Of a DNA stretch of 33,572 nucleotides, positions 2,765-24,356 are shown one piece after another; positions within the stretch are counted from its first letter, which is position 1, and each line of letters starts with the position of its first letter. A program made the translations under genes and the position numbers. The notes under the pieces were generated by a model, which saw only the letters and a list, made by a program, of their open reading frames with translations, ran no database searches and was not told the DNA's origin. The stretch comes from Porpidia crustulata (taxonomy: Eukaryota), in contig CAXUWE010000011.1 in the NCBI GenBank assembly GCA_964255105.1, positions 1 through 33,572 of the forward strand. The letters are read 5' to 3'.

Positions 2765-3986
2765 ATTGAGCAAGCAGAAGGGCGATGAATTCCACACCTT
2801 GGAGGATGGTTTCGAGGTGATGCCAGAAGTCGGCACGACTAAATGATCCAAACCACGAGCAAGCTCTTTAAAGCCCAATTCCTAGTTGCATGCATTCGCA
2901 CCCTCGCTCTCGCTTGACAGCCGGCGATTGATAGCCAGATTCATACATCTTTCCAGTGTGTAGACCGGTACTGATGGTTTCATTGGCTGGCTCCGGAGGG
3001 GGACTGTCAGGCTGACACGCTGATAAGTGTCGTTCCTTATCAGCAAGGTTCCCGAACTTCTAGAAGCTTTGCGACGAAGGCTGGCCTGATAGGACAACGA
3101 CGGAGCCGAGGCGATGGCATGCAGCTCGGCTGAACATTGATGTTCCCATTGTCGCCACATATGCTTGAAGGATCGACACAGAGGCTTTTCGAACGTTTCA
3201 TCAGTAATAGCATGTACCGTAGTATGTAGCTGTCGAAATGACTTACCTGGGGTGCTAGGCACGCTAGGGTAGGCCCTGGTACGGAAGCCTTACTCGGAAC
3301 GGAGCTTATTGTGGAGAGCTTCCATAACTAGCTAGTTCGGTGCTTATCCGGCATGTGCCAGGCAAAAAAATCCATACCGCAAATCTCGATCGTCCGCTCA
3401 CGTCGTTAAATTTACTACTGCATCTGTAGAACACATCGTCTGAACGCTATAGAATTAAGCGACGATGAACGCAAAAAACAAGATTGAAACGACACGCTGT
3501 CAGATTTCTAGATTCGTCGAAAAATCTTCTTGAAGTAATCATTAAATCTGATAGATGTTGGTGGAAGTCGACTTTTGCGGTATGGATTTTCCTGCACCCC
3601 GCGTGCCCGGTCTTGGATATCGTTTTGGGTAAGTGCACCCGTTGCGGATGGGGCGTAAAACGCAATCTTGATAGACAGCGTGACAGCTCCAGTGGCTTGG
3701 CGTACGGATGTACTTTTTTAAGACTCTCAATTAGCAATAAATCCTTCTCCCTCTTATCAGGCGTCTCCATTCACGTACCATTGCTATTCCTGTCCGAGGG
3801 CCAAGCTGTGATTGGTCGACTATCAACTGGATAAATACATTTTCTATGTGCTCTCGTCGCATCCCCAGAACAGGTAAACAAGGTCGAGGGGATGGAACTC
3901 TTGCTGGAAGATATCTAGAGTCATGTCATCATAATTTCCGGTATACGTGATAGAGCAGAGATCGGAAAATAGATTAGTATCGCGTG

Positions 3987-5726
3987 ATGGCTTCCAATCC
4001 CCTCCTCGAATCCAGTGTGCCAGATTGGGAAGTGGAAGAAGGCTTACCCCAGTTCGGTGATCATTTCATCCAGCAGTATCTCCGAGGTCGTGAGGCGCTG
4101 ATTGAACAAGAAAAAGCCCAGCGAAGCGACTATGCGTTCCGTCAGACTCTCACTCCACTCGCCGCGGAAGCTTGCGCAATTGTTTCACGCATCAGAGCAG
4201 AAGAACAAGGTACCGTCTGGACTGGGGCTTTCGAGAATGATCTGGCCCAGCAAGAGGGAATTGATATTTATCCTGGGATGATGTTTGCACTCGCAAAAAA
4301 AAAGATGGAACAGACGAAGTCGTGGCAGATAGTAAGCAAGATGCCTAAAGGAGCGCTTCTACACGCCCATTATGACGCTATGATCGATGTCGACTGGCTC
4401 ATTGATCAACTCTTGACAACAGACGGAATGGCAATGGTGGCAACTCAAGCACTCACCAGTGCAGAATTAAGGCAAACCGCCTCGATTTCATTTCGATATT
4501 CAGGAGGTGTACCCAATGATATCGCTTCTATTTGGAGTGAAGCTTATCAAGCCAACAGACTGGTATCTGTGAAGCGGGCAGCAGACACATTCCCCAATGG
4601 TGGAAGACAAGGTTTTAAGGAATGGCTAGAGAATCGCTGTACCATCACGCAAGAGGAATCGTTGAAACATCATCATGGAGTCGATGCCATCTGGAAAAAA
4701 TTCCAGGATACGTTTCCAATACTAGGCTCAATGATATTTTACGAGCCAATATTTCGGCTTTCTGTCCAGCGTTTGTTACGCCAGCTCTCCGATGATGGTC
4801 TAAGGTGGGTAGATCTTCGAATTGCGTTCGTCTTTCAATATAGGCGAGCGAAGCACGCGGAGCCTGATGAGACCTACGATGAATTCTTCAATGTCTTCCG
4901 TGAAGAAGTTAAGAAATTTCAGAGTACAGAGGCTGGAAAGGGGTTCTGGGGCTGTCGCTTCATCTGGACCACGCTAAGAAGACTCCAGAAGAAGGAGATT
5001 GTGGAGAGCATGAAAACATGTATCGCAATGAAGAGCGCCCACCCAGACCTGATTTCTGGCTTTGACCTCGTGGGGCAAGAAGACATGGGCCGATCGCTCG
5101 CAGATCTGACACCTGAGTTATTCTGGTTTCGCAAACGATGTGTCGAGAATCAAGTGGATATTCCATTCTTCTTTCACGCGGGTGAGTGTTTAGGGGACGG
5201 TGATGAGACTGACGAGAACTTGTTTGATGCGATATTGCTCGGGACCCGCCGAATAGGGCACGGGTTTTCGCTTTACAAACACCCGTTGTTAGTAGAGATG
5301 GTGAAACAGAAGAAGATACTGATAGAGTCATGTCCAATCTCGAATGAGGTGTTACGCTTGACAAGTTCAATAAAATCCCACCCTCTACCAGCTCTCCTAG
5401 CCAAAGGGGTCACTGTGGCACTATGCAACGACGACCCTGTAGTTCTAGGACATGGAAAGAATGGGGTGACGCATGATTTCTGGCAGGCACTGCAGGGATG
5501 GGAGAACCTTGGCTTAGAGGGCCTCGGATCTCTTGCTGAGAACAGCGTGCGCTTTGCAGCATATACGCCAGACCAAAGTACCAAAGAATGGAATAAAGAC
5601 ATCAAAGATGGCATCTTCGGTGACGGAATCCGGGCTTCACGAATGAGGGAATGGAGTACGGAGTGGAACAAATTCTGCGAATGGATTGTGATGGAGTACG
5701 CTGCAGACTATGTTACGGAGGATTGA
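3987..5726 (+). CDS. Adenosine deaminase, ADA2/CECR1 (ADGF)-like, intronless, 579 aa
   Basis: Single ORF with amidohydrolase-fold motifs MPKGALLHAH, GFDLVGQED, FFHAGE, RRIGHG, ESCPISN and NDDP, plus an ADGF-type N-terminal extension. No evident signal peptide. Confidence 0.93.
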   Translation: MASNPLLESSVPDWEVEEGLPQFGDHFIQQYLRGREALIEQEKAQRSDYAFRQTLTPLAAEACAIVSRIRAEEQGTVWTGAFENDLAQQEGIDIYPGMMFALAKKKMEQTKSWQIVSKMPKGALLHAHYDAMIDVDWLIDQLLTTDGMAMVATQALTSAELRQTASISFRYSGGVPNDIASIWSEAYQANRLVSVKRAADTFPNGGRQGFKEWLENRCTITQEESLKHHHGVDAIWKKFQDTFPILGSMIFYEPIFRLSVQRLLRQLSDDGLRWVDLRIAFVFQYRRAKHAEPDETYDEFFNVFREEVKKFQSTEAGKGFWGCRFIWTTLRRLQKKEIVESMKTCIAMKSAHPDLISGFDLVGQEDMGRSLADLTPELFWFRKRCVENQVDIPFFFHAGECLGDGDETDENLFDAILLGTRRIGHGFSLYKHPLLVEMVKQKKILIESCPISNEVLRLTSSIKSHPLPALLAKGVTVALCNDDPVVLGHGKNGVTHDFWQALQGWENLGLEGLGSLAENSVRFAAYTPDQSTKEWNKDIKDGIFGDGIRASRMREWSTEWNKFCEWIVMEYAADYVTED

Positions 5727-5953
5727 ATATGACCAAATGAGCATAGTGATCCAAATTACAAAATATAAAACCCGGATTGAGATCATTTCGGCATGGAGTC
5801 TAAGCTGTCTTGGGGTGAGCTTCTCTGACTCTAACGGAACGGCAAAGTAGCTGGGATGGTTGTACCTTGAATCTTATGATTAAGAGAATATTAAGGGAAG
5901 ATCTGGGTACAGCGGCCAGATCTCGGAATAGGCGAAGATAAACTTGCTCATGA

Positions 5954-6089
5954 ACAATCCGCATGATTTATGTCATCATTTAAAGATGATGCTGCCGAAC
6001 TAACGGCTGAATTAGTACCCTTCATCAAAGAGTCAACTTTATTGTTTATGGCACAATCCGCATGACTTATACCAACATTTAAAGATGAT
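5954..6089. repeat. Imperfect 37-bp direct repeat, two copies with a 99-bp period
   Basis: 5954-5990 acaatccgcatgatttatgtcatcatttaaagatgat versus 6053-6089 acaatccgcatgacttataccaacatttaaagatgat; 33/37 identical. Confidence 0.85.
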
Positions 6090-6465
6090 TCAAATCAGGA
6101 CGGTACTGGTCAAACCGAGTTGAGATGCCGTCGACGGGATGAATAAGCCAGGAGCCGTTAAACTCAAGATACGTTTTTACTTAAGTCAGAAAAAGTCTGT
6201 GCTTTAAGATATTTCCTCATTCGTAATGATTTTATTTACTTAATCTCAGTCCAGGTGAAATGATAACCGTTTCCTGTCTATTTCGACGCCTTTTTCAGCG
6301 GCTTTTGCACTGGAACCCTCACACATACCCAATGTCCCTACTCAGTACCAACAATGCACTACTGCACGCAAGCGCTTCGTGCCTTTGAATTGTTTCTTAA
6401 AAATGGTACGTAAAATGGACTGCTTCGAGGATGTCTTTGCTGGATTCCTGCAGGGATTAGTTCGT

Positions 6466-7242
6466 TATCCTTGCTCATTTGCAGAACAGCACCATTGCAC
6501 TATCACATTCAGTTCCACAGCCAGTGCAAATCGACACAAAGCCAAGCATTCCGCTATTCGCTACCCTTGTCCATTGGCAGAACAGTAGCATTGTACACGG
6601 ACATTCGTATGCAAGGACTCTGCTCGTAAACACGGAAAAGCGCACGCTGAGTCCCACATTTGTTATCCTTGCCCATTGAAGGACCAGTATCAATGCACTC
6701 TAACGTTTTCTACAAAATGGGTTGCCCAGAATCACGCAGCTCAACATTCTGGTATCCGCCAGCCTTGCATGGTCGCAGACTATTACCAATGCTCTCAAAC
6801 TTTTGCTGATGTGGCTTCTGCTCGGTTGCACGCTCAAAGCCAACATTTAGGGATCCGCTTCCCCTGCCCTTTGGCCGATCGGTTTCAATGCTTCCTTCAA
6901 AATTTCCTATCACAAAAGGATGCTCGATTACATGCTGGATCCCAGCATCTCAATATTCGATTTCCTTGCCCTTTAGCAGATCAATTCCATTGCTCCCAAA
7001 CCTTCACTCGGAAGCGTGGTGCAAGCGCGCATGCTCGATGGAAGCACGCGGGCGTCGGCTATCCCTGTCCTTTGGCAGAACAGTTTCAATGTTCCCTAAC
7101 ATTTCGCAGAGAATCCGACGCTCGCAACCATATTAACGTGCACCAAGGAATATCTTATCCTTGTCCTGCGGCAGAAAAATATAACTGCTCTACAACATTC
7201 AGGTTGGAGTGCGAGGCTCGGAGGCATGTGCACAGGCGCCAT
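6466..7242 (+). repeat. Eight tandem ~32-33-aa zinc-finger repeats, C-X7-C-X12(13)-H-X3-4-H
   Basis: Units: YPCSFAEQHHC, YPCPLAEQ*HC, YPCPLKDQYQC, QPCMVADYYQC, FPCPLADRFQC, FPCPLADQFHC, YPCPLAEQFQC, YPCPAAEKYNC. Each is followed by xxTF (xxxNF in unit 5), then A..H...H. Two more divergent C-X4-C fingers follow, to ~7434. Confidence 0.9.
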
Positions 7243-7665
7243 CAAGCCAACTTTGGTTGCTGGCTTCTAGGGTGCATGGCACGCTTTGAAACATGTGTCC
7301 GCCTTCTTGTTCATGTAAATGAGCCTGAAAGCCACATGGAGAAGTTTCTTCTTTGTCCTGTTTCGACTTGTTCACTGGCAGTTTCTCAGACTCCGCTCCA
7401 AAAAAACAAGTCCCCCCGTCATTTTCGAAAACATCAGAAGAGAGGAGAGATGACGGGAGATGAGATCGTCCAGGAAATCAAGCCAGAACAAGCAAGTCGT
7501 TGCGATCTGTACGATGTTATCATTCGAGACTCCTACATAGACATGAATTGGACCGAAAACTTGAATGATAAAATTATAGGGGTGAGAGACTGCTCTTTGA
7601 AAGAGATCGCCGATGTTCTCTGTCTCCAAGACCGACACGTATCAGGAAATGGTACGAAGGATAGC

Positions 7666-7713
7666 TCCGAAGATGGCTCCGAAAATGGTTCCGAAGATGG
7701 TCCTGAAGACGGT
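7666..7713 (+). repeat. 12-bp coding minisatellite x4 (SEDG SENG SEDG PEDG) in the acidic linker
   Basis: tccgaagatggc tccgaaaatggt tccgaagatggt cctgaagacggt. Confidence 0.8.
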
Positions 7714-9782
7714 CTGGGCGATGAGCTAGTCAATGACTTGGAAGAGGGCCCAGACGACAACATGGAAGACGGGTTGAGCAACGACTCGGGGAGCGTTTCG
7801 AAAGAAGACTCAAACTTCAGCTTTGGGTATGTGCTTACTGCTCTGATAACTACCTAGGTACGATTCGCTAATCTTGAATAAGCAGTTCAACTTACGCTGG
7901 CAATGAAAATCCAAGTGACTCGAAAGCTGACTTCGTTTCTGACATTGTTCGCTCTCACTGGCAGGAAGCACGTCAGTTGACAGGAGAAAATCAGCATATC
8001 TTTGGCTCCATTCATTAGATGAAAAGATGCGCAAGTCAATCCTCGAGATGAATATCGAGTTCTGGTGTAAGAAATGTTCTATCTTCTCAGACTATTGGCT
8101 AATCTATTGAAGCTTGGAAACGTCAGAAGCAAAATCGACCTGCAAACATACGACTCGTCGGACTCAAGTGCATCGGCCCAATGCCATTGGAAGGAAAGAG
8201 AGTAGCGACAGAGGAAAATCACTGTCCTTTTCAAACCATTTTGGACCTTGACAATTCATACCTATACATGAGCACCTTAACCGAGAGCGATTCACACACC
8301 ATCAAGCTCAGCAAAAGATGCGTGTCTTGCTGGGCTCGTCATCGACTTACGGTGGTGTTGGCAACTCGACAACTCTTTGCTAGTGCAGAGGATCAACAGA
8401 GCACCTGCGCCAAGAATGGTTACTTTCAGACAGAATGGTCCGGCACTCGATACTGTTACCGTCATGCCGACGATGAGTTGGGCACAAATTGGCATTCAGT
8501 GCTACGATATGATCCGGCCCAAATCAGCTCTAAGTTCGGAGGTTGACAATTGCATTTCATATCAGTAGCTTCGAAACAGTGGACCAGTAGCGAAGACATT
8601 CAGCTTGCGATGTCTCGTGCCGCTGAAACTAGAGCAGGTCATCGACAAGGCACTGACTTGGTTATCTTGGATATTGAGTTCAACCGAACTGGTCAGGTTA
8701 AGGAGGTTGCTCTCATCGAGTACGTATCCGGACGGGTCGACACATTGGTCAAGCCCCAAGCACCTCCGGAGCTTTCTCAATTGAAATTAGCTCGGAGGAG
8801 AGGTTTCATCGATCACTTGTGGTCCAGGAAGCTCGATTCTTCTGGTACAAACACTGATCAAGATCTCGATGTCTGGGCTATCGCAAAGGCCCTTGAAGAT
8901 TCGGGAGTTACAAAAGATTCCGTGATTTTGGTCTGGCATTCAACGTATTACGATTTGACCTTGTTGGACAATTTCTTGGTATCTGCTGGAGCTAACTCGA
9001 CGCTGCCATCGAGGGCAAACTGTGTTCGCCTGGTGCCTCACGTCCGCGCGGATGTGCCTCCTCACAACGGGAAACCCTTCTCTGCGACTCTATCCATAAA
9101 TTCCCCATTCCATTTCCCCACCATGAATTGGTTGGGCGTAATCATCGAGCTTTAGTGGATTGTCAGCAAACCCGACTTATCATGACGGCGTTTGAAGAGT
9201 TCGCCAAACCAATCGGCATTCCTGGAAAGCTAGAATTTTCTGATATTAAACCCATTCAGTCAGCAGACTCTGGAGAAATGGTTGGTTGACCCAACTCTGG
9301 TCTCCCATCACCATGAAACCGAGAATCGGGCCGATAGACTGACATCTAACTAAATGGGAACGCTTTCATGTGTAGAGCGTGCAACTCAATGGAGAGGTTA
9401 GCACAGCTTTGACTCGTTTGAGTCCATGTCGAAGACCACCTTCGACTATGCACATGTCCTTCTCATATACCTATTCTCTCGCCGAAACTGTTCATGGAAG
9501 CAGCTTGTCACGTGTGAGCTTGTTTAGAACGAGAAGCCCCAACCAATATTGCATTTTGCTCCAATGCAGCAACGGTGACCTGATTTTCGCGCGGAAACAG
9601 ATGTGACTTTGAGAGCGCGATATGTGTTTACAAATCGATGAGAGCGTCGGGAGATAATATCGGTTGATGTGGAGAATACCTCAGCTAGGAAATGTATAAG
9701 TACAAGTTCTACATTTCAAGTTTCATCAAAACAAAGCGTGTTCTCATGCCATACTCAGATTGAAGACCAACTTACTCAAAGG

Positions 9783-11012
9783 CTATATGTAGCCTTTCAG
9801 AATTGCACTCTCCGCATTCAAAATTGATGCCCCGGCAGCCCCCAGGACTGTGTTGTGGGTTAAGGCCACGAACTGGATGTCAAAGATACCACTTTCGTCC
9901 TCCCTGATTCTTCCGACGCTGCACGCGTATCCTCCTTCCGTCTCTATATCGAGGCGAGGCTGCGGTCGATCAGCCTCTTCTAAAACGATGATGGCGTGTT
10001 GTGGAGCCGAAGGACACCCCAGGAGTTGCACCTCTGAGGTGTACTCTTTCATCGCATTACAGACCTCGCTCACGGTCGGCGGAGGTCGGTTTACGAATCG
10101 TAACGACACACACACTGTATGGCCATCAAGCACCGGGACACGATTACAGGCAACGGAAATGTGGAGTGGTTGATCGATAAATCCAGGCAGGTCCGTATTC
10201 AAGCTGCCTAAAATCTTGCGAGCTTCAGCTGGAATCTTGGCTTCCTCTCCTGGGATGTATGGAATGATATTGTTAAGGATGTCCATGCCTGATGCAGTTA
10301 GCTGTAATATGTAGAATGTACCGGGCCCTGGGCGCTTTATGGGCAGAAGACTTGATCACTTACTGCTGACGCCAGGATAACCTGCTCCTGATACGGCCTG
10401 CATAGTCACCATGCTCACTTGGTCAATAGGTCCGAATTTTTGAATAAGTGCTGCGGCTGGGATGACGAGGCCGATGACCGCACAGTTTGAATTGCACACA
10501 AGGAGGCCTTTATCTAGTTGATAATGCCGACGCTGTGCTAGGATCGACTCAATATGTCCTAGGTTGACCACCGGAACAATCAGCGGAACCAGGGGTGCCA
10601 ATCGGAAGTTTTTGGCATTTGAAAAGACGGCAAAGTTTGCTGTAAGAAAGGCCAATTCAACATCGCCAGCCACATCAGAATTAAGGCCGGAGAAAATTAT
10701 GTCGCAATTTGTATATTCGGTGGGTACGCAGCGTCGGACGATCAGATTTGCGACTTGTGCGGGCATTGGGATCGACTGCTTCCAACGCACGACATCGGAG
10801 TATTTTTTACCGGCTGAATTTTCGGAAGCTCCTACAGCTACCAGTTCTAGCAGCGGATGTTGAGCGAGCAGGAGAATAAACCGCGTTCCCACCGCTCCAG
10901 TTGCTCCTAAAACACCTGGGAAATGTGAGTCAATGTCTTTCATAATAACCAGTGGAATGGGCTTCATACCGCATCGCTTTTTCGAAGACGTGTGATTGTC
11001 TTTGGAAGACAT
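9783..11012 (-). CDS. HOM2: Aspartate-semialdehyde dehydrogenase
   Basis: Exons 11012-10970, 10915-10364, 10288-9783. Rossmann motif [10 protein letters not shown], catalytic [37 protein letters not shown] and [10 protein letters not shown]. Confidence 0.95.
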
Positions 11013-12106
11013 TGCTGTGTCTCTGTGTGATCCTGAATATCGAGTCAGAGATTCTTCGTTGAGGGAGCCTGGAACTTTTATACACCGACTTGGGAGTCGC
11101 AGTGTCGGAGACCAGACCACGTGACCAAACCGTACAACAACAACTCTATATCTCCTAGAGTTAGCATTTCTATGAGTCCAAAATAGCGAACTTCATAAGG
11201 CGTGCAAGTTGTTGAAATAGTTAGTCTTTTACCTATAGCTGTCCGCACGATCGAGGCTACCTGTAATCCTTACTGCTATAGTCCCAGTTATATCAACCGA
11301 GAGTAACAAAGAGAGCGCTGAAGTAATAGCAGAAGCATGGCTTGTCTGCGATCAGGATAGAAGAAGAGAACGGTGGAAAGAAGCCGCGGGATCATTATTT
11401 TTTCTTATAGTGTGAATAATTAAGCGGGCAGTGGAAGTAGCTACCTACAATTTCAATCGAAGGGACGGCGTCAAACCGCATCGGGGAACTGCTAGGCCGA
11501 ATGCCGGAAGGCGCGCCAATTTCACTAGGACCGTCATTATTTATAAATTTACTCTGCGCTGTATTAATTGCATGAAAAAAGCGAACTTTTTTTAATTGTA
11601 TCGATTTTCTAACGACGACGAGATCTGAGCGATGAAGTTCGTAAAGTCATAATTAAATAGATAAATATTTGAGTAGTTAAATTAAATGTTTAAATGGGGC
11701 CTCGGTAGGGCTGACTCCGCTGACTTTGGACGTACGGTTGACATAACTACATATATACCTTATCCGGCTGCATAATTACAGACGCTAAGGTATTTTACTG
11801 TATGAGTGCGATAAGGTACGTCTGACGCCTCAAAGCATCATGTGCTGTTGTACTGGTTTTACAGAGGAGTCGTCACTTTGCATTCCCCCTTCCAAAGGAT
11901 GATGATGTGCTCTCCGACTCCAAGTTTCACTCACCATAATGTCAGCTGCGGTAGTGTTGAGTTCTCTTCCTCTCTATTCTCTTCCCACAGAAGAATGGTA
12001 TCTGGGACATCTCTTCACGCACCCGGATACCTCGAATTCGGCGCTCCCAAGAATATGATATTAAGGCAGTAGTGCCGAGATTCTACGTGTTCCTACAAGT
12101 ATCATA

Positions 12107-21383: not shown

Positions 21384-24356
21384 ACCTTTTCCGCGCTACC
21401 CGGGCGGTTGGAAAACGCGTCGCGGTCTCAACCGCAGCAATCTCTCACTTTTAAAGAAGTACCGCCACTAGCCAAATCGCGTACTCTACATATCCTGCGT
21501 GGTCGAGATCCTTCTTCCCAAATCTTGAACTCACAATGCTCCTGGGCCCCCGCTGAGACTCATTTGCCCTTTGCAGATCAAGAGACACAGGAACGCTCTT
21601 ATAGCACATCTTCTGCAATGTCGTTCACGATCTTCTTCAAGCGGGGTCGCAGCAAGAGCGAGAGCCAGGCGAATAAATCGAAAGCGAAGTCTGCAGACGC
21701 TGGCGTTCTTTGCGACCGAATGACTCTCCGTCGGAAGCATTCGGTGCCAGCAATCCAAGTACCAGAGCTTGCTCGCATTAGAACGGGAACTTTCATTGAT
21801 ATGGGAATGAACAACCCAGATTCCCTGTCCGGACCTCTGCAAAACAGGCGGCTGTCCGATTCGCCCCGTGGTCTATCCGTATATAACGGCATAGGAACTA
21901 CAAATATGATTTCTAGCTCGTCGCCTGTTCTTACATCCGAACGACGATATGTCATGGATTCGCTACATCAGGTTCAAGCCCGAGGGTCCATTGCAATAGA
22001 TAGCTATTCCCGGGAAACCGACCAGCAACCCGATCCTATGAACGACAACACCATCGCCGATATTGTTCAGGGATATGCTCGGCCCAGAGACGTGGAGACT
22101 GATTCAAGATTGAGTCGATTTGAGTGGTCTCCAAGAGGGAGCACAGAGCGTCGATCACGATCTGCCGACCAGAGTGTCTCTGGAACTGCACTGTACCAGC
22201 ATGATAGCCTAGATTTCCCCGATCTCTCCTCCAGTGGGCTTCAGATTGGCTTGGCGATCTCTGACATCACGAGAAACAATCACGAGCGATCCCCTGTGGC
22301 TCGAAACCCGACAGAACCTCCAACTACGCCACTGCCACGGCTACCCGTGGGAAACTTTAATTATGAGAGCCACAATCTTTCCCTTTCAAGTAGCCCTTCA
22401 AATTCCTACGGAACTACTCGCCATCTACTCGAGCTTTCGTCACCAATTCGAATAAATGTTCCGCAGCGTATGAGAGGTCAACCAGTCCCAATGCCAGTGT
22501 CGAGTAGCGGTTCCACCCCGCCTCAAGATGGCTATCTGCCGCGAGGGTGGGTGTCGCTGGAGGCTCCAGAAGATGCTGTAGACCTTGGTCCTGGCGGTAG
22601 CCAGACCTCCTCATCAAGTGCTATTATCCGGAGCGGTACGCCGCCCCTTTTATTCGGCACTCGAGCTATTGGTATCAGGGGTACCTCACGCGCCCCTTCG
22701 AAGGGTATCAAGTCTCAAGATGATGAGCACGACTGGGAGACTGTGGCCGACAGTGGGTTCAATTTACATAGGACCCTAGTAGATATCGGCACCTTTCGCA
22801 CCACAGGGAGTAGTCTGGCCGATGTGTCAGACTCGAGTCAACCAAGTGTGACGAGGAGCATTGTCGGAGCGCGTGTGCTGGTACATCCAGCTCATCCTCG
22901 ATACCAGTATTCATGGAGGATGCTTCAAGACATGCAGAGTGGGGAGACTGTCCTAACTCCAGACTACTCGGAGAGTAAATTATTTGCTGATGAAAACGTA
23001 TATCAGCATCCAGAACCATTGCAATCTAATCACGAACATCCATTCAGCACACCACCCCCACAAATGAAACCTTTACAGGTCAGGGAGGCTACTACCGGCG
23101 GTGGTATTACCTTGCCGCTACGAGTATCGTCGGCGAGACCCGAGAGGTCCTCCGACACTAATAGTGAGCCGTCGATACAAAGTGAGCAGTGGCTCACTAC
23201 TACTGATGGCCTTACTTCATTTACAGGTGGTGAGTGTTGATGTGTCCGAAAGGGAGGCTTTGGTGAACTCACAGTGTTAGGTACCGTGAAGCTTCATCAC
23301 CGACGGACCATTGACGGAAGTCTAGACGCGATCTCCGCAAATGCACCTGGTAATTTTGAAGAGAGAATAAAGAACCATCCAATCTTTAGACGTGACTCTG
23401 ATGTGGATTCTCTCGATCAACTCTTCACATCTACGTCAATAGAGGACTTATCACCGGAAATCCAGCACCACCGGCAACACCTCATAAACAACTCATTGCT
23501 CCCACGAGAGCAGCCACCTCTCGTTGGCGCGTCAAAGCGCCACTCGACACCGCTTCCCCCACTAAGGCCAAGGAGTCTGGCACCAATGTCAAAATCCACT
23601 GCCACTGGTGTAGCGCCGGATGGTAACCAAAACATGCGGATGAGGTCGCCTCGCCGAAATGGTCGAACAGAGGATATCACTATGGGCGTTTTAACGCCAT
23701 TCTCATCTCAAAACACCCACTTCACGAATCCAAGCCTAGAACGTCAGAATAGAAGGCAAGCTCGACGAGCAAAGCGTCGGGCCAAAGACAAGATGTCCGA
23801 TGGAGAAAGCTCACCTGAGGCGAAGATTTCTGCAGAGTTCTTCGAGCAAGCTCGGTTTCGTAACGACGACGCCGCTTCTCTGACACCCACACACCACCCT
23901 GAACGAAGGTCAATTCACAGTCAAACTGAGTCTTCGATCAGCATTACGCCTACCATAGGGACAACGATCCATTGGGTTGGATCTTATGGCTATTTTATCC
24001 AAGACATGCGTGGTCCTCCCACTCGCACGGGGCGCATTCAACGTCCAATCTCAGTTGACCGTCCTGTTGCACGTGTCGAGTCGCCCCGCCTGCATCGTCT
24101 TCCACGTCCGGAAGGTCCTGTGATTGAGAAACGCAAAATGGAACTCTCATGTGTATTCCTGGCTCTGTGTATGGTTGTCCCCCCAATGCTAGTGATCTAC
24201 GGACATGGATTCCTGGATGGCGTTATGCAAAAGCTTTCCAAAGGCGAGATTTTGGGTTTCCGCAAGCGAGAGAAGATCATAGCCTTAGTCATGGGTTACA
24301 CGTGCATAGCCCTCATCTGCGTTGGCTTAATGCTTTTGTTCATACTTCTTCTGTGA
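21384..24356 (+). CDS. Ser/Pro/Arg-rich, largely disordered protein with two C-terminal transmembrane helices; 5' end unresolved
   Basis: ORFs 21408-23240 and 23274-24356 join in frame via intron 23230-23280 (GTGAGT..CTCAC..TAG; alternative in-frame acceptor at 23274). An in-frame acceptor at 21383 (ctaat...ccttag) implies upstream exon(s); otherwise the first in-frame ATG is at 21618 (MSFTIFF). Hydrophobic segments VFLALCMVVPPMLVIYG and IIALVMGYTCIALICVGLMLLFILLL. Confidence 0.8.

Follow-up and report, generated by a model that had tools for sequence, protein, structure and literature searches.

The window analysed here is a stretch of 33,572 nucleotides (nt) from Porpidia crustulata (assembly GCA_964255105.1, contig CAXUWE010000011.1, positions 1-33,572, forward strand). 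Between an adenosine deaminase (ADA)-like open reading frame (ORF; 3978-5726, +) and a gene for aspartate-semialdehyde dehydrogenase (ASD; HOM2, 9783-11192, -), it carries a run of interrupted ORFs in which zinc fingers are followed by the motifs of a DEDDh-type 3'-5' exonuclease. The question raised by this locus is whether these pieces belong to one gene, what that gene would encode and whether it is still intact. A reading made from the letters alone, here called the original prediction, had proposed a nuclease whose specificity is set by a variable finger array. Our analysis indicates that positions 6403-9353 (+) are most probably a recently decayed unitary pseudogene from an uncharacterised fungal family that combines a finger array, a Cys/His module and a DEDDh domain, a reading to which we assign a probability of about 0.8.

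A single gene with five disabling lesions

The zinc-finger/exonuclease gene is a single gene with two short introns, the second of them putative. When the finger region was used as a query, two full-length named proteins were recovered: P0167 from Cenococcum geophilum (768 amino acids, aa) and P0168 from Zopfia rhizophila (784 aa). Together with P0036 (863 aa), these are intact full-length homologues that are collinear with the window gene, and each of the three has C-x7-C fingers, a conserved pair of odd fingers, the acidic linker, the Cys/His module and the C-terminal domain. Identity to the window gene is 33-37% in the best full-length homologues. Since the intact homologues carry fingers and C-terminal domain in one polypeptide, the two form one gene here as well. 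The original prediction had named, as one outcome that would refute it, that fingers and exonuclease are always separate genes, and this is not the case. Moreover, the window gene aligns over its entire length to the intact 768-aa protein (in tblastn, the fingers align with E 3e-46 and the C-terminal half with E 4e-30), so the pattern is not a product of chance. The original prediction had merged four ORFs into one gene that ended at 9289. The merger holds, but more than four ORFs are involved, and tblastn against intact relatives places the true stop 64 nt further downstream. The parts of the gene are as follows.

6403, + strand: start codon ATG (sequence reading)
6403-7826, + strand: exon 1, with the ATG, finger array, conserved helix and acidic linker; broken by an in-frame TAG
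7640-7815 (approximate), + strand: acidic linker rich in Ser, Asp, Glu and Gly (translation; aligns with an acidic stretch of P0016)
7827-7885, + strand: intron 1, GTATGT...CAG, 59 nt, phase 2 (sequence reading)
7886-8066, + strand: exon 2, with a 1-nt deletion at about 8013/8014
8067-8112, + strand: putative intron 2, GTAAGA...AAG, 46 nt, phase 1 (splice signals and phase fit)
8113-9353, + strand: exon 3, with the Cys/His module and DEDDh domain, ending at the stop TAA (9351-9353)

Within exon 1, the ORFs 6259-6588 and 6589-7857 lie in the same frame, and the exon is 34% identical to residues 1-286 of P0167 (E 3e-46, tblastn). Intron 1 is backed by the gene model P0016, in which ...SFG runs on into S(S)T(H/Y)AG with the intron removed. 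Intron 2 is a candidate that we infer from its signals; the ORF-style prediction P0015 reads in frame through 8067-8112. For exon 3, the tblastn alignment of P0002, an intact close relative, spans 8181-9350. The acidic linker and the Cys/His region of the original prediction were both found in the sequence. Part of the linker, a Ser-Glu-Asp-Gly stretch, is encoded by a 12-nt tandem repeat of 4.5 copies (7655-7709), which likely varies in length from strain to strain.

Lesions were mapped by tblastn of intact relatives against the window. Five are disabling, two nonsense codons and three frameshifts, and they are listed here together with one deletion that keeps the frame.

6586-6588, + strand: lesion 1, in-frame TAG inside finger 2 (PLAEQ*HC)
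8013/8014 (approximate), + strand: lesion 2, 1-nt deletion in exon 2, frame 3 to frame 2
8544-8546, + strand: lesion 3, in-frame TGA where relatives have Arg (tblastn of P0002: FRGRQLHF against FGG*QLHF in the window)
8738-8739, + strand: in-frame 6-nt deletion that removes two Leu of SGRVLLDTL (tblastn gaps against P0002 and P0016)
9096-9100, + strand: lesion 4, 1-nt deletion, frame 3 to frame 2
9257-9261, + strand: lesion 5, net +1 frameshift (4 extra nt), frame 2 to frame 3

At the TAG in finger 2, the other fingers have F, Y or H at the equivalent position. At the deletion in exon 2, P0015 and P0016 read FGSILLDEKMRKSIL in a single frame where the window requires two, and FGSILLDEKMRK is likewise a one-frame reading in relatives. 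The relatives also read LSTIFPILFPHHELVG in a single frame across lesion 4, where the window again requires two. At lesion 5 they read DIKPTQQTLENWLVDPTLVSHH, and the window reads QQTLEKWLVDPTLVSHHHETENRADRLTSN in frame 3, on to 9350. A small intron around the TGA at 8544 was considered and is ruled out by the in-frame Arg of the relatives. Beyond the stops and frameshifts, the window has Tyr (8421-8423) at C81, a ligand column of the Cys/His module that holds Cys in 41 of 44 filled rows of the family alignment described below.

The locus therefore has what defines a unitary pseudogene, namely disabling lesions relative to intact relatives and retained introns. The window copy is an inactive pseudogene, and the full protein cannot be made in the Porpidia crustulata genome. 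Its decay is probably recent, given that all five catalytic residues are still encoded. The copy itself records no more than the loss of the gene in its lineage.

Predicted DEDDh domain and Cys/His module

The C-terminal half was analysed through an alignment of 71 family members (A1), with residue numbering taken from P0002. The features of this half in the window are:

8169-8465, + strand: Cys/His module (family columns C15, C47, C50, C76, C81, C92 and H95 of P0002)
8670-8678, + strand: Exo I, D-I-E
8937-8954, + strand: Exo II, (LVW)H-STYY-D, with the Asp at 8952-8954
9143-9160, + strand: Exo III, H-RALV-D, in frame 2

All three motifs lie where the original prediction had placed them, including the HRALVD hidden behind a frameshift. 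Across the family, D164 and E166 of Exo I are each kept in 70 of 71 rows and D260 of Exo II in 69 of 70, and Exo III retains H324 in 53 of 59 rows and D329 in 56 of 59. The complete D-E-D-H-D pentad is present in 52 of the 59 gap-free rows. The family motifs LD-x-E, hhxH-x4-D-L-x-hL and H-x-AL-x-D resemble the classical Exo I-III motifs. In an AlphaFold model of P0002, built from the 71 aligned sequences (predicted local distance difference test, pLDDT, 83.2; predicted template modelling score, pTM, 0.71), the D-x-E lies on the first strand (residues 160-167), D260 at the start of the helix that follows strand 4 (250-253) and the H-x4-D at the last long helix.

Comparison of this model with known structures points in the same direction. 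Of the PDB matches listed by Foldseek, 38 of 43 are DEDD-type exonucleases or polymerase proofreading domains, among them PolC exo, ISG20L2, REXO2, TREX2, Cas2-DEDDh, Orn, RNase T and epsilon, with probabilities of 0.80-1.0 and target-normalised template modelling (TM) scores of up to 0.61; the remaining five are three other RNase H-like proteins and two unnamed polymerases. Against viral models, the best match is a DnaQ epsilon-like protein (E 8.1e-6), one of seven at E<=1e-3. The nearest language-model neighbours are RNase_T clusters (score 0.90), which we treat as a lead only. The domain thus has the RNase H-like DnaQ fold, the D-x-E, the Exo II Asp and the H-x4-D of the DEDDh superfamily and lacks a match to a curated sequence model. 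Judged by the predicted fold and the conserved pentad, it belongs to the DEDDh superfamily as a remote member that no curated sequence model covers, which agrees with the DnaQ-like assignment of the original prediction.

The Cys/His module lies upstream of this domain. Its ligand columns are conserved in 39-55 of 44-57 filled rows, and 31 of 34 gap-free rows have the complete set of seven ligands; a shorter form with three Cys also occurs. In the P0002 model, residues 11-100 reach block-mean pLDDT values of 80-95. The module probably binds zinc. It matched no known family in Pfam, where the sole match is zf-C3Hc3H (E 0.095, 5 of 71 members), and the Atlas gave no usable match.

The finger array and its family

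The N-terminal half consists of the finger array, which was located by regular expression:

6472-7434, + strand: ten zinc fingers in all
6472-7242, + strand: eight C-x7-C-x12-H-x3/4-H fingers
7258-7335 and 7354-7434, + strand: two C-x4-C fingers

The count of eight plus two in the original prediction is thereby borne out. At the DNA level, seven copies of the finger unit recur with a spacing of 96-102 nt. An AlphaFold model of the residues encoded by 6589-7449, built with 7 homologues (pLDDT 79.6), contains repeated strand-strand-helix units in which the wide knuckle carries a short extra helical turn. Foldseek returned 67 PDB matches for this model at E<=1e-3, including the arrays of CTCF, ZFP568, TFIIIA, WT1 and PRDM9, and the best of them is CTCF bound to DNA (E 3.3e-10). 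The array accordingly has the tandem beta-beta-alpha fold of C2H2 fingers. The helix positions that contact bases in classical fingers vary among the fingers of the array, a pattern that would fit diversified recognition without proving it.

The family extends well beyond the intact homologues. The C-terminal half, read through the TGA, recovered 24 close proteins with 36-88% identity, mostly fragments, two of which have named sources (P0008, Lambiella insularis; P0016, Cudoniella acicularis). In a library of 1.84 billion proteins, the same half matched 145 cluster representatives at E<=1e-3, corresponding to about 145 clusters at 50% identity. Family members with names are all Pezizomycotina. 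Among the relatives of at least 450 aa, 16 of 28 carry between 2 and 9 N-terminal fingers of mixed spacing, consistent with the variable array of the original prediction. Pfam zf-C2H2 matches 9 of the 71 A1 members; in one other member, a Myb domain takes its place. A FastTree of the exonuclease domain was computed from 69 of the 71 A1 rows (two short rows were dropped, and P0167 and P0168 lie outside the alignment). In this tree, in which many finger-less rows are probably truncated models, 6 changes account for the finger-bearing rows, compared with a mean of 9.5 after shuffling, and 9 of these 10 rows fall into one clade of 34 rows.

The frames of the close relatives are themselves disturbed in places, as 6 of the 24 switch frame within window positions 8383-8766, which hints that other copies are broken too. 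Several public gene models of close relatives (P0021, P0016, P0007 and P0024) look like artefacts built over broken copies. In P0016 and P0007, the Cys/His region is partly read in another frame; P0024 passes through the 3' flank and has lost the D-x-E; and in P0021, the exonuclease gene is joined to antisense HOM2 sequence.

Several observations weigh against our reading and have to be set beside it. For the C-terminal domain, the fold matches in the PDB have weak E-values, the best being 2.3e-3 and none reaching 1e-3. Pfam gave no match to this domain in the window pieces (E<=1), in 68 homologues (E<=0.01) or in the 71 A1 members (E<=1); RNase_T, the family (PF00929) that the original prediction had named as its check, is absent from all three sets, including the 25 families shown for the A1 members. 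NCBIfam likewise gave no match to the domain in 10 homologues, and PDB sequences gave none to a window piece (phmmer) or to the A1 profile. For the array, the fingers are atypical, with C-x7-C spacing and no TGEKP-type linker, and the window array scores below the Pfam zf-C2H2 threshold (PF00096, 13.2 against 25.2 bits). Weak Sina_ZnF matches were obtained as well. Lastly, many relatives have no fingers, and most representatives are 250-450 aa long. The short finger-less relatives may reflect truncated gene models. When the C-terminal half was searched against longer proteins only, no match came up, which is weak evidence.

The best surviving of the alternatives starts from these features of the array. 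It holds that the fingers are SIAH/TRAF-like adaptors that bind proteins and do not read nucleic acids, so that a protein partner would recruit the exonuclease. The C-x7-C knuckle is indeed wider than in classical C2H2 fingers (C-x2-4-C, from which eight of the ten depart), the canonical linker is absent, and Sina_ZnF is the sole Pfam family above noise, with E 0.0069 for the first fingers and 1.3e-4 for P0167. Both Sina_ZnF scores, however, at 17.2 and 22.8 bits, fall short of the curated cutoff of 32 bits, and past the second Cys the spacing is the canonical x3-F-x5-A-x2-H-x3/4-H. All 39 finger matches listed by Foldseek are C2H2 arrays, nearly all solved with DNA or RNA, with no SIAH or TRAF protein among them. 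Furthermore, other members have arrays of classical C-x2/4-C fingers with scores above the Pfam cutoff, for example 67.3 bits in P0085. Protein-binding adaptors are thus a possible explanation, though a considerably less probable one than C2H2-like fingers that would bind nucleic acid.

Neighbourhood, origin and kinship with known systems

The gene sits among housekeeping genes, with Pfam recognising a nucleoside transporter, ADA, HOM2, ATG2, a SLAC1-type channel, RAD1 and GCN5 in the window. The original prediction had seen it as inserted between such genes and possibly as the cargo of a selfish element. A related alternative is that the gene moved horizontally or on a mobile or selfish element, and that the window copy is a decaying insertion and not an old resident. 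The relationships of the gene give some grounds for this. Relatives that are 83-88% identical at the amino-acid level over the C-terminal half carry source names from two fungal classes (P0008 and P0016), and the best full-length homologues reach just the 33-37% given above. The window HOM2 is nearest to two PDB fungal ASD chains, with 321 bits each against 254 for a third, and the frame-switching models among the close relatives suggest several broken copies. The locus itself, however, has none of the marks of a transposable element or of Starship cargo within the window. Neither terminal inverted repeats nor long direct repeats border 5727-9782. Of the 13 large ORFs in the window, 4 had no Pfam match at all, and none matched a transposase, an integrase or a tyrosine recombinase in Pfam. 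The gene is present in a single copy within the window. In addition, P0021 continues from the exonuclease gene into antisense HOM2 (window 10615-10860, 74% identity), and the similarity of P0024 persists to 9514, past the stop codon. At least some records thus share the neighbourhood, an observation that speaks against a recent insertion. The source names could also be due to assemblies that are mixed or contaminated. We therefore consider the mobile origin unlikely, and neither the insertion nor the selfish-element suggestion of the original prediction finds support.

Other observations on the neighbourhood stand apart from this argument. The source names of P0008 and P0016 do not sit easily with the HOM2 comparison (window 10359-10949, -), for which horizontal transfer and mixed assemblies are both possible. 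HOM2/ASD is split by an in-frame stop into the ORFs 9783-10355 and 10356-11192 (-), with the N- and C-terminal Pfam domains on either side, most likely because of an intron. Upstream of the gene, the intergenic DNA contains a 37-nt direct repeat (5954-5990 and 6053-6089) whose copies are 89% identical and spaced by 99 nt. The ORFs 21384-23240 and 23241-24356 (+), of 618 and 371 codons, abut in frame with one stop between them and have no Pfam match; the pair may represent a stop-bearing intron or another broken gene. A concentrative nucleoside transporter (649-2184, -) lies close to the ADA-like gene, and the two may form a purine-salvage pair. No Rfam match was found at 5600-9900, and there are no tRNAs in the window.

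Two further alternatives are highly improbable. That the C-terminal domain has a DEDD-like fold without catalysis and serves as a binding module only would fit the failure of all sequence profiles of active exonucleases to recognise it, but the conservation of each catalytic position and of the whole pentad is unexpected for a dead site. That the gene is functional, with stops and frameshifts that stem from errors in assembly or sequencing or that are bypassed, finds some encouragement in the slight extent of decay, with the five catalytic residues and most finger ligands still encoded, but is countered by five independent lesions of two kinds within 3 kb, by the additional 6-nt deletion and the Cys-to-Tyr change at a conserved ligand, by a TGA that splicing cannot remove and at which relatives have an in-frame Arg, and by the neighbouring long ORFs, a 582-aa ADA-like protein and a 2052-aa ATG2, whose uninterrupted state makes a general assembly error unlikely.

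In intact members of the family, a C2H2-like array with a variable number of fingers comes first, followed by an acidic linker, a Cys/His module that probably binds zinc and, at the C-terminus, the DnaQ-like DEDDh domain. We propose that the DEDDh site (D-x-E, D, H-x4-D) would trim nucleotides from the 3' end of DNA or RNA by the two-metal mechanism of its superfamily. The array would deliver the enzyme to a nucleic-acid target, and the zinc module would stabilise or extend the exonuclease. Sequence-targeted action would go a step further, and roles in genome defence or RNA silencing are conceivable for such a protein. The boldest version, in which the intact members are natural zinc-finger-guided 3'-5' exonucleases whose fast-changing array targets transposons, viruses or small-RNA precursors, and in which repeated gene death marks an arms race, would make them nature's equivalent of engineered zinc-finger nucleases; it is a speculation that we regard as doubtful.

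The combination of a multi-finger array and a DEDDh exonuclease in one protein is so far uncharacterised. The original prediction knew of no characterised fungal protein of this kind, and in keeping with it our search of the literature found no paper on a family joining a multi-finger array to a DEDDh exonuclease, nor did a curated family emerge. If the fingers set the target, the family would represent a natural programmable exonuclease, with a bearing on fungal genome defence or RNA processing, and possibly a new scaffold for tools. At a minimum, it is an unannotated DnaQ-like family of about 145 clusters with a predicted zinc module of its own.

Comparison with known systems places the family at the meeting point of several of them. 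With the DnaQ-like DEDDh exonucleases (pol III epsilon, PolC exo, RNase T, Orn/REXO2, ISG20L2, TREX1/2 and ERI1/3'hExo), it shares the predicted fold and the order of elements, from the D-x-E on strand 1 through the Asp after strand 4 to the H-x4-D at the last long helix. It differs from them in having no detectable sequence-profile similarity, in a long helical insert after strand 3 and in the added N-terminal Cys/His module and, in many members, multi-finger array. Cas2-DEDDh (8fyc), the arenavirus NP exonuclease (7v3a), Pan2 and CAF1/Pop2, which hold ranks 7, 46, 23 and 3 among the fold matches, illustrate how often the DEDDh fold is recruited by an attached module or zinc site. None of the four has a multi-finger C2H2 array, and the relation to the family that can be shown goes no further than the superfamily fold.

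On the side of the fingers, the family resembles the poly-C2H2 arrays of CTCF, ZFP568, TFIIIA, WT1 and PRDM9 in its tandem beta-beta-alpha units, with Foldseek E-values down to that for CTCF, and in the spacing C-x3-F-x5-(A/L)-x2-H-x3/4-H. In contrast to these arrays, the window array has the C-x7-C knuckle with its helical turn in eight of ten fingers, lacks the TGEKP linker and stays below the Pfam cutoff, and the fingers of the family are joined to a nuclease and not to a regulatory domain. Engineered zinc-finger nucleases, in which a finger array is fused to FokI, offer a parallel in design, as they too combine a modular finger array and a nuclease in one polypeptide. The family of the window gene differs from them in being natural and in carrying a predicted DEDDh exonuclease in place of an endonuclease, which its fingers may direct to a target.

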